A stretch of 64,000 nt of DNA from Escherichia coli (lineage in GTDB: Bacteria > Pseudomonadota > Gammaproteobacteria > Enterobacterales > Enterobacteriaceae): the NCBI RefSeq assembly GCF_013315695.1, contig NZ_CP054353.1; one strand, 5' to 3'. The first letter of the stretch is position 1. The number at the start of each line of letters is the position of its first letter. Position numbers: made by a program. Shown here piece after piece: positions 20,701 to 23,700 of this stretch.

Positions 20701-23700
20701 AACTTTGATGGCATAGATAATGTTTTTAGTAAAAAAGAGTTGACTGAATATAATACAGCCTCTTCCTACATAAGAAGGAATGTGCTCACAAAAAAAAAAC
20801 ATTAGTCTGCTTCCTGTTCTTACAATAATCAGTATTATGTATTTTATTTATATAGCAAAATATGCTTGTTACACCTGTCATAATTAGGCATGGTAAAATT
20901 ATTGACTGAACCCTGGGGGAGAAAGATGCACAGTGATTATTATAATATGGTTTTTGGTGAAAAATTGGCCAATATTTTATATGAAGCTAACTCTCAATTT
21001 TTTTACGAGAGAAATGTCATAGAAGAGGCAGTCAACGCTTTATTCTGTGAGCGTGAAATAATAAACAACAAGAACATAATAAAGAAGCTGATGTTCTTTT
21101 TGTCAGATGTTAATCACACCAAGAAAGATGTTGTTCAGAGCGCACTTAATATTATCATTGACATTACATCAGGTGATATTTGAGATTTTACATAAAAGAT
21201 AATCTCTCAAGGAGTCTTATCTGAAAACGAAATATATAGTCCCTCTCCTTTTGTAATATCGATTGGCTTTGTTGAATCGGTTACGTACCCCGGAGCCGGT
21301 CATATTTTCAGGTAATACACACGCTTTCAGACATTTCGGCTTTCGTCATTTTGGTATCATGGGCATAGCTTCTGCTACCTGACCATCATAATCACGCAGC
21401 TTCAGTGAAGCAGTGACCACCTGTTTAACCCGGTGTATCGTTATGATCTTATCCAGCAATTGAACCGTCCCGGGTTTCCTGGAGAGTGTTTTATCTGTGA
21501 ACTCAGGCTGCCAGATCATCGTTTCCGATGGAAGCATAATAAGCTTTTTCTGCTTCTGCCGGTGGGATATGGCCCTGCCTTTCCAGCAATCGTCGATTGT
21601 TATACCAGTCCACCCACGTGAGTGTGGTCAGCTCATCATACTGACACGTGCATTACCCCTACCGCGATAATGCAACCGTACAATATAGGGCGTTTCCTAA
21701 ACGCAGCCCTCATCACTCCAATCCAACAAGACACAGCATTTTTGATCACGAAGAAAGACAAATAATTTCCGTAAATGTTTCCGTTGTTACAAATAACAAC
21801 AGTGTTTTACATTTCTTTGGCCTCAGGCCCGCGCATGTTGCCATTCGATGTCATTTTCCTGACTCGTTTCTTCTTTATGGTGTAGTGTGATCTTCACTTT
21901 ATGGATGCTAACAATATGAAAAGAAAAATTATTCCCGTGCTAATCGGTTGTACGCTCTCTTTCTCTGCCCTGGCGGCACAACCTACGGCTGAGCGCTATG
22001 TCGTCAGTTTTCCAGAAGGCACGCACGTGAACTACGCCGGCGCATTTGCCAGTGCATTCCCGAACGGCCTTCCGGTTGGGATAGGTTCTGGCCTGCTGTT
22101 CACCGGTAAACAGGGCGATGCCCTGACATTCGCAACCATTACCGATCGCGGTCCGAACGCGGATTCACCGAAAGAGGGGAAAAACGAAACTAAAATTTTC
22201 GTTACGCCAGATTTCGCGCCGCTGCTGATGACGATTCGTGTACAAAACGGCAAAGCGGAGGCCATCGATCCCCGTCCTCTGCATGACGATAAAGGCGCGA
22301 TCAACGGTCTGCCGCTGGCAAGCGACGTGATTGGCTCCACCAATGAAGTGGCCTTCAGCGACACGTTACATAGACTGAAGGGGGATAATCGCGGGCTGGA
22401 TACGGAAGGGATCACTCCGGATGGTAAAGGAGGTTACTGGCTGTGCGATGAGTATGGCCCGTTCCTGATTAACATCGACAGTAAAGGGAAAATCCTGGCA
22501 ATCCACGGTCCGCAGGCGGCGGAAGGGGAAAAAGCGATTGCGGGCGGTTTGCCAAATATCCTCAAATGGCGTCAGGCGAACCGCGGCTTTGAAGGCCTCA
22601 CCCGTATGCCGGACGGGCGTATTATTGTCGCCGTGCAAAGTACGCTGGATATCGACGCTAAGAGCAAGAAAAAGGCGCTGTTTACGCGTCTGGTGAGCTT
22701 CGATCCGGCAAGCGGAAAAACCGCGATGTACGGTTATCCTATCGACAGCGCGGCCTACAGCAAAAACAGCGACGCTAAAATCGGAGACATCGTGGCGCTC
22801 GATAACCAGCACATCCTGCTGATCGAACAGGGAAGAGATAAAAACAACAGAATGCGTAACCTGATTTACGAGGTCGATCTCAATAAGGCGAGCGACCTGT
22901 CAGGCTTCGACAAGCCGGGTGAGTATCCGGAGTTTGATGATGAGAAAACCCTGTCACAGCGCGGCATTACCCTTGCGCAGAAAACGCAGGTTGTTGATCT
23001 GCGCTCCTTGGGCTGGCAGCAGGAGAAGGCTGAAGGGTTGGCGCTGATCGACAGCAAAACGCTGGCGGTGGCGAACGATAACGACTTTGGCGTGAAGGTG
23101 GCGATGCAACATCCGGTCGAGGGCAAGACATTCAAGGATTATCGGGTGAACGCGGAAGGAAAGCTGACGCTTGACGACAAGCAGGTTGAAACGACCCTCA
23201 GAGTGAAGCCACTGGAGAAACCGGAGTCTGACAGTGAACTGTGGATTGTGACGCTGCCGGAAGCGTTGAAATAAGTTTATAAGGTACGGACAGCAGTATC
23301 GCTTAGTTTTTCAAATTCATGTATGTGAACAATATTGGGGTTCCGGCGTAGACCCCCAATGAAAGCGTCACCACGTGAAAACATGCCTGCACGGTTTACA
23401 CGTCATCCCATGGTGGCAGCCGGTTAACTTTCCTGCGTCACCAGTGGAAAAAGGCCATAAGCAGTCCGAACAAAAGTAAGCGTACAGCGAGGGCCGTATT
23501 GACGGGGATGTGTTATTCAGCTGGCAGTGCTATGCGCCACGGAAGCAGTTCGCTGACCCGGTTGACCGGCCAGTCTGCTATGACGCCAAGCACATGGCGA
23601 AGGTAGCTTTCTGGATCCACGTCATTCAGTTTGCACGTCCCGATCAGGCTGTACAGTAGCGCTCCCCGCTCACCACCATGGCCAGAGCCGAAGAACAGGG

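Follow-up and report, generated by a model that had tools for sequence, protein, structure and literature searches.

A PhoB-type promoter predicted upstream of a widespread phytase-like esterase gene carried on Escherichia coli islands

Introduction

The alkaline phosphatase PhoA, a Sec-exported alpha/beta enzyme with Zn and Mg, scavenges inorganic phosphate (Pi), and the promoters of phoA, phoB and pstS have a Pho box in the place of the -35 element, followed 10 nt further on by a -10 hexamer. PhoX, Psip1 and the beta-propeller phytases are exported propellers with acidic metal-binding clusters that are also tied to phosphate starvation, and Psip1 provides an example of a phosphatase family that went unrecognized (PMC11098088). 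Here we analyze a gene coding for a member of the Pfam family PF13449 (“esterase-like activity of phytase”) that lies among insertion sequence (IS) remnants in a 64,000-nucleotide stretch of an Escherichia coli chromosome (assembly GCF_013315695.1, contig NZ_CP054353.1), hereafter called the window. The gene shares with phoA, phoB and pstS their promoter layout, and its product shares with PhoA the export by Sec and, presumably, the role in Pi scavenging, but the fold predicted here is that of a beta-propeller and the control by PhoB is likewise a prediction. The exported propellers listed above are similar to it in predicted fold, in acidic residues and in their links with phosphate starvation. 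By contrast, the protein gives no profile match to beta-propeller phytase (PF02333), PhoX (PF05787) or Psip1, none of these is among the top structural matches of its model, and we do not place it in any of those families. As for Psip1, the link goes no further than the presence of a “phytase-like” domain alongside its orthologs in some cyanobacteria.

The genomic setting of the gene also has a described counterpart. According to Table 2 of PMC6980539, orf34 of the SRL pathogenicity island (PAI) of Shigella flexneri is this same protein, at 99.78% identity, and the original analysis of that island, as cited there, had already catalogued orf34. To the extent covered by that source, the SRL PAI of S. 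flexneri 2a YSH6000 and the window have in common the succession of fec (orf26-33), orf34, IS66 (orf35-37) and a YfjJ/Gp2-type gene, the match of orf34 being that of the paper’s table, whereas the SRL PAI contains in addition a multi-resistance region and an aspartate racemase/dcuA pair. Both the gene and the island context in which it lies had been catalogued before, and we are dealing with a real but ordinary accessory gene on a well-known island type. What is new is limited to the Pho-box architecture that is conserved upstream of it and makes its function directly testable.

A conserved Pho box upstream of the gene

We searched for the Pho box, CTGTCAT-N4-CTGTCAY, in 70 upstream regions, namely that of the window and those of 69 loci from Enterobacterales. 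In E. coli, the conserved core of this box is CTGTCAT (PMC4415409). The best site showed at most three mismatches in all 70 regions, at most two in 58 of them and none in two, and these boxes were placed at -62 to -79 from the ATG. When the same sequences were shuffled, sites with at most two and at most three mismatches appeared in 0.2% and 1.8% of cases, respectively, and in random 200-nt windows taken from the same loci the corresponding values were 0.06% and 1.3%. In each case, the box is followed by 10 nt and then by a hexamer, TAnnnT, that the search pattern did not include. Across 18 genera, the 20 nt preceding the box had an information content of 0.13 bit per position, as compared with 1.44 and 1.46 bit for the two half-sites, 0.30 bit for the 10-nt gap and 0.97 bit for the -10 hexamer; the anchoring on the consensus inflates the values of the half-sites and leaves the -10 signal unaffected.

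The window promoter has this same layout, made up of ATGTCATTTTCCTGACTC (21848-21865), the gap GTTTCTTCTT and the hexamer TATGGT (21876-21881). Applied to K-12, the same script recovered CTGTCATAAAGTTGTCAC followed by 10 nt and TATAGT in front of phoA, TTTTCATAAATCTGTCAT followed by 10 nt and CATAAT in front of phoB, and a perfect box for pstS. Activation by PhoB is known to need a strict spacing of the box to the core promoter (PMC10294691). No full sigma-70 -35/-10 pair was found in 21500-23600; that there is no sigma-70 -35 consensus is as expected, since the promoter would be activator-dependent. This architecture, as read from the aligned upstream regions, suggests a PhoB-type promoter in which a conserved Pho box replaces the -35 element, so that control of the gene by PhoB can be predicted.

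In the vicinity of the gene, an Rfam scan detected no RNA family. A perfect 7-bp inverted repeat, GTTGTTA-CAAA-TAACAAC (21785-21804, + strand), precedes the Pho box by about 45 bp; it is non-palindromic in the Enterobacter orthologs and is probably fortuitous.

Family, export and predicted fold of the protein

The open reading frame (ORF) delimited mechanically spans 21901..23274 (+ strand) and would code for 457 aa, whereas RefSeq places the start of the gene at 21916, which yields 452 aa (WP_000823243.1). We prefer the latter because its ATG and the preceding block GGAYGCTAACAATATG are both kept in the aligned Enterobacter orthologs, whereas the ATG at 21901 is absent from them; this alternative start was consequently ruled out. 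The protein matches PF13449 with E=4.6e-43 and 148.6 bits, against a cut-off of 27.6, and the match spans profile positions 4-284 of 284, so that both the score and the near-full coverage place it in the family; no NCBIfam model matched. A preliminary description of this region, made from the sequence alone, had announced a phytase-like esterase of roughly 450 aa with a signal peptide, and both points agree with what we found. Upon inspection, the N-terminus, MKRKIIPVLIGCTLSFSALA followed by AQP, displays an n-region MKRK, an h-region IIPVLIGCTLSFS and an A-L-A cleavage motif, in an n-h-c layout of the Sec/signal peptidase I (SPase I) type without a conserved lipobox Cys; the signal peptide was assigned by eye. 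The orthologs of Cronobacter, Yersinia and others have A or S at the position of Cys12 but retain the xLAA/AxA cleavage site. A lipoprotein, evoked by an L-I-G-C look-alike at residues 9-12, was considered and rejected, as Cys12 is unconserved and a signal peptide of 11 residues would be too short. Because Cys12 is unconserved but the AxA-type site is conserved, the predicted exported product is presumably, by default, a soluble periplasmic protein.

An AlphaFold model computed from the single sequence was useless (pLDDT 38.8) and was superseded by a model (AF2) based on a multiple sequence alignment of 94 sequences, with a pLDDT of 96.2 and a pTM of 0.92. It predicts a six-bladed beta-propeller with four-stranded blades, in which the N-terminal strand 24-31 would serve as closure, and a small C-terminal beta subdomain. 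In the 94-sequence alignment, the near-invariant residues are G57 S58, D77 R78 G79 P80 N81, D162 E164, E179 Y180, N222 G224 E226, R258, D291, E304, K371 E373 and D388 D390, and the E. coli protein holds the consensus residue in 61 out of the 61 columns conserved at 80% or more. The conserved residues of this PF13449 protein are mostly acidic or basic. On the strand map, they lie either where the first strand of blades 3-6 begins or just past the second strand, which in the model would correspond to the usual spot of the central top-face active site of propellers, and the mixture of acidic residues with Arg and Lys would fit a metal-plus-phosphate site. A phmmer search of the protein against PDB sequences gave no match, the family profile matched in the PDB only single NHL-like blades, Drp35 and YjiK, and we found no close solved structural relative of the propeller model. 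Its structural matches include the human soluble calcium-activated nucleotidase SCAN-1 (PDB 2H2N) and the C-terminal domain of E. coli YjiK (PDB 3QQZ), both with 13-16% identity and about half of the query covered.

Chromosomal orthologs, origin and distribution of the gene

Full-length chromosomal orthologs, with 57-90% identity, occur in Enterobacter, Lelliottia, Pseudenterobacter, Pantoea, Scandinavium, Buttiauxella, Cedecea, Serratia, Yersinia, Cronobacter and others. The closest ones, from the Enterobacter clade, are 90% identical in amino acids and 82-87% identical in nucleotides, and their dN/dS values of 0.08-0.10 point to purifying selection. Like the E. coli copy, the chromosomal orthologs (Enterobacter, Lelliottia, Pantoea, Serratia, Buttiauxella and related genera) code for proteins of 445-457 aa with the same type of signal peptide, have the Pho box/-10 layout and are monocistronic. 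By contrast, they reside in stable contexts, whereas in E. coli the copy forms a patch between IS junctions, is found on mobile islands and plasmids, and has a weaker Pho box. In the 68 Enterobacterales chromosomal loci that we compared, the ortholog stands alone: no conserved neighbor or operon was found across them, no neighbor family is present in more than 19 loci and the contexts are only genus-specific, the commonest neighbors being yjiA/cstA in Enterobacter and an aquaporin in Serratia. In Enterobacter, the gene has a recurring chromosomal site beside yjiA-yjiX-cstA (neighbor families of 18 and 16 loci).

These comparisons modify the earlier picture of the locus. That the gene sits alone between an IS remnant and an IS66 element is accurate, with IS3 and IS5 fragments upstream and IS66 downstream, and so is its position away from any operon. 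However, the isolation does not result from the IS-rich setting, since the ortholog also stands alone in the 68 chromosomal loci and this is therefore its native condition. A place in a conserved core locus, which would have spoken against island cargo, is half true, as the gene has a recurring chromosomal position in Enterobacter but is island cargo in E. coli. The description as strain-specific cargo holds for the second word and fails for the first: the gene was detected in 2261 of the 5426 complete E. coli genomes (41.7%), every copy having at least 99% identity, and it is present in the Shigella SRL PAI. It is widespread, long-catalogued island cargo rather than strain-specific. At least 80% of the gene length is retained in 2190 of these 2261 carriers (about 97%), and the rows sampled are annotated as an intact coding sequence (CDS). 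Among complete E. coli genomes, it is found on chromosomes and also in 66 plasmid records, and PLSDB adds 64 further E. coli-type plasmid copies as well as 48 Pantoea plasmids with homologs of 60-80% identity.

Sequence comparison places the gene and its own promoter in a patch of Enterobacter-like chromosomal DNA (21635-23475, about 1.84 kb) with IS junctions on both sides. The promoter-proximal ~170 bp upstream of the gene in the window, in which the Pho box and the -10 hexamer lie, can be aligned with the intergenic DNA of Enterobacter hormaechei and E. lignolyticus. This patch is now carried on CP4-like/SRL-like islands and some plasmids. There are at least two distinct island contexts, and the junction of the esterase gene with the truncated DUF6404 gene and IS66 is identical in both; one of them is linked to fec and, in the other island, ISKpn26 stands in place of the IS3 fragment. 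The DUF6404 remnant, located between the stop codon of the esterase gene and IS66, had been overlooked in the preliminary description; its similarity to plasmid-borne DUF6404 genes extends over 23358-23475 (- strand), with 86-94% identity. The 8 bp flanking IS66 on either side are unlike each other (GAACAAAA and CACTATTT). Without a target-site duplication, this junction implies a rearrangement rather than a simple insertion. A 1.9-kb query from the window is 100% identical to strain MSB1_4I (NZ_LR898874.1), and mapping on that genome puts the window in an island adjoining nanC-fim.

A gene with 99% identity and the same upstream region also occurs in a 2971-bp contig (CAJKJS010000287.1) binned in a metagenome-assembled genome of an “uncultured Ruminococcaceae”; this contig is almost certainly mis-binned E. 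coli DNA.

Proposed function and alternative explanations

Several members of the family have links with phosphorus. PF13449 domains are fused to metallophosphatase and 5'-nucleotidase domains and to a ParB-like nuclease, and other fusions combine them with cell-surface or type IX secretion system (T9SS) anchors together with a choice-of-anchor I domain. One PF13449 gene of Nodularia, which the authors named an “atypical alkaline phosphatase”, is among the genes most induced by P limitation, as is a GDPD protein with a phytase domain, and the log2 change of the PF13449 genes under this limitation reaches up to 5.5 (PMC9846622). In Synechococcus WH8102, the level of a phytase-like exoprotein goes up and down in parallel with those of three alkaline phosphatases (PMC4949707).

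We lean, although by no means strongly, towards the gene having been acquired, together with its own promoter, from an Enterobacter-like chromosome and coding for a PhoB-activated, Sec-exported, metal-dependent phosphoesterase. At low phosphate, PhoR would phosphorylate PhoB, and PhoB~P would bind 21848-21865 and recruit the RNA polymerase. The protein would then be exported by Sec, with its signal peptide cut after Ala20, and a metal-dependent site (probably Ca2+) at the top of the central channel of the propeller would hydrolyze organic phosphoesters in the periplasm, the most likely substrates being nucleotide- or nucleic-acid-derived esters; the Pi set free would be taken up by Pst. For this protein, we infer PhoB binding, induction, catalytic activity, metal and substrate from the comparisons presented above.

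A number of observations weigh against such a phosphoesterase. With three mismatches, the window box belongs to the 12 weakest of the 70 ortholog boxes and, taken alone, it is at chance level, as 12 such sites exist in the window when 8.7 are expected; its weight comes from the orthologous position that it occupies. No E. coli-type Pho box was found upstream of six distant homologs (50% identity or less, other taxa), which limits the Pho inference to the Enterobacterales clade. K-12, the strain in which the PhoB regulon was mapped (PMC10294691), does not carry the gene. The low dN/dS reflects mostly the evolution of the donor lineage and not that in E. coli. Finally, in a literature survey that covered characterized PF13449 enzymes, the protein accession and the Pho exoproteomes of Pseudomonas, cyanobacteria and Bacteroidetes, we found no member of the family with a biochemical characterization, only computational mentions or expression data, and the name “phytase/esterase” is a computational label.

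Some of these observations would also agree with the gene being a silent passenger in E. coli that was brought in by the movement of IS66 and island DNA, is weakly expressed from a degraded promoter and has no selected function. The patch is bounded by IS junctions and was placed by rearrangement, its Pho box is weaker than most, the upstream region has a GC content of 42% as compared with 54% in the gene, and the near identity of all E. coli copies implies a recent spread that left little time for decay. Nevertheless, most carriers keep the gene at 80% of its length or more, with an intact CDS wherever sampled, every conserved family residue is retained, and three mismatches are also seen in 12 of the 70 ortholog boxes, so that we deem a silent passenger unlikely. 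We assign the same low probability to a propeller that has no relation to phosphorus, be it a hydrolase or a binding protein (for instance a lactonase, a cyclase-like or a carbohydrate-active enzyme), for which the Pho-box-like sequence would have another purpose or reflect an indirect co-regulation. A box at a fixed spacing from the -10 hexamer in 70 out of 70 orthologs, with randomized flanks, is hard to explain without PhoB control; in addition, the fusion partners of the family are phosphoesterases and nucleases, and its cyanobacterial members are induced by P starvation. A genuine phytase hydrolyzing myo-inositol hexakisphosphate in gut or soil, evoked by the Pfam and RefSeq name, by a propeller fold whose many conserved acidic residues broadly resemble those of Ca-dependent beta-propeller phytases and by a Pho regulation that would suit a phosphate-releasing enzyme, appears very improbable to us.

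If the gene does code for a PhoB-activated phosphoesterase, a more speculative extension can be envisaged, which we regard as conceivable but rather doubtful. PF13449 might constitute an unrecognized class of Pho-regulated, metal-dependent beta-propeller phosphoesterases, in a situation similar to that of Psip1 before its recognition, and ~40% of E. coli strains might carry an accessory phosphatase of the Pho regulon. This would imply that the carriers include extraintestinal pathogenic E. coli (ExPEC) and Shigella islands, and that studies of the Pho regulon based on K-12 missed a phosphatase because this strain is devoid of the gene. Confirmation of the Pho inference would provide the first function for a large uncharacterized family (2065 cluster representatives at E<=0.001) and add an accessory, horizontally spread member to the phosphate-starvation response of E. 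coli and Shigella. Every Enterobacterales ortholog examined is preceded by a Pho box that is spaced as at phoA, and this makes a name-only annotation testable. The gene moves along with islands for iron uptake (fec) and adhesion (Ag43), so that it may plausibly have been selected for the scavenging of nutrients in the host.

Other features of the window

The features of the locus and of its surroundings are listed in Table 1.

Table 1. Coordinates of the esterase gene, its predicted promoter and the flanking elements in the window
Feature	Coordinates	Strand	Basis
Pho box-like candidate PhoB site, ATGTCAT-TTTC-CTGACTC, 3 mismatches, -35 position	21848..21865	+	Orthologous box in 70/70
Candidate -10 hexamer TATGGT, exactly 10 nt past the Pho box	21876..21881	+	Fixed spacing of TAnnnT in orthologs
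Remainder of the native upstream DNA, acquired with the gene	21635..21847	+	Upstream regions of E. hormaechei and E. lignolyticus, aligned
PF13449 CDS, 452 aa, WP_000823243.1	21916..23274	+	ORF, Pfam, RefSeq annotation, AF2 model
Predicted Sec (SPase I type) signal peptide, residues 1-20, predicted cleavage between ALA and AQP	21916..21975	+	Sequence inspection
IS3-family transposase fragment, left boundary of the captured patch	21503..21634	-	RefSeq annotation in 100%-identical NZ_LR898874.1
IS5/IS1182-family transposase fragment	21308..21438	-	RefSeq annotation
Small YmgB/AriR-family (biofilm/acid-resistance regulator) ORF	20890-21183	+	RefSeq annotation
IS1F, between the fec operon and the IS-fragment zone	19426..20179	+	Annotation
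fecA-fecR-fecI, ferric citrate locus	15307..19189	-	ORFs, annotation; gene linked to fec here and in the SRL PAI
DUF6404 gene C-terminal remnant, 78 nt, convergent with the esterase gene, cut by IS66	23396..23473	-	RefSeq pseudogene
IS66-family element, 22-nt terminal inverted repeats	23476..25764	-	ORFs, RefSeq, terminal repeats
IS66 ORFs tnpC, tnpB and tnpA	23513-24898 (tnpC), 24948-25295 (tnpB), 25292-25693 (tnpA)	-	ORFs, annotation

Close to the gene, the YmgB/AriR-family ORF is stranded amid IS fragments, directly upstream of the esterase patch. On the other side, counterparts of the DUF6404 gene exist on very many E. coli plasmids (most of 1986 plasmid places), where they are annotated beside a hypothetical protein. 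The tnpC ORF of the IS66 element codes for only 461 aa, in an entire element of 2289 bp; typical IS66 TnpC proteins have ~520 aa, and an in-frame internal deletion in tnpC seems likely.

Further away, a chromosomal cluster of shf (polysaccharide deacetylase), capU, virK and lpxM (msbB2) lies at ~5450-9350 (- strand), between IS600 and IS3 pseudogenes. This cluster is better known from the pAA plasmid of enteroaggregative E. coli (EAEC) and from Shigella virulence plasmids. The part of PMC6980539 that tabulates the SRL PAI also places capU and shf beside fec. At ~45700-55100 (+ strand), a low-GC block (32-45% GC) contains consecutively the genes of an SNF2-related protein, a site-specific DNA methyltransferase of 1034 aa and a DEAD/DEAH helicase of 1126 aa, followed by fragments of HNH and phosphorothioate-dependent restriction genes; the block looks like a defense or restriction-type system. 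In the 100%-matching strain, the annotation of fimB (60751-61353) is that of a pseudogene interrupted by an internal stop, which would affect the phase switching of type 1 fimbriae. The only match at the Rfam gathering level in the window is an IS102 RNA (RF00124, 66 bits) at 34031-34267 (+ strand), near the Ag43 region.

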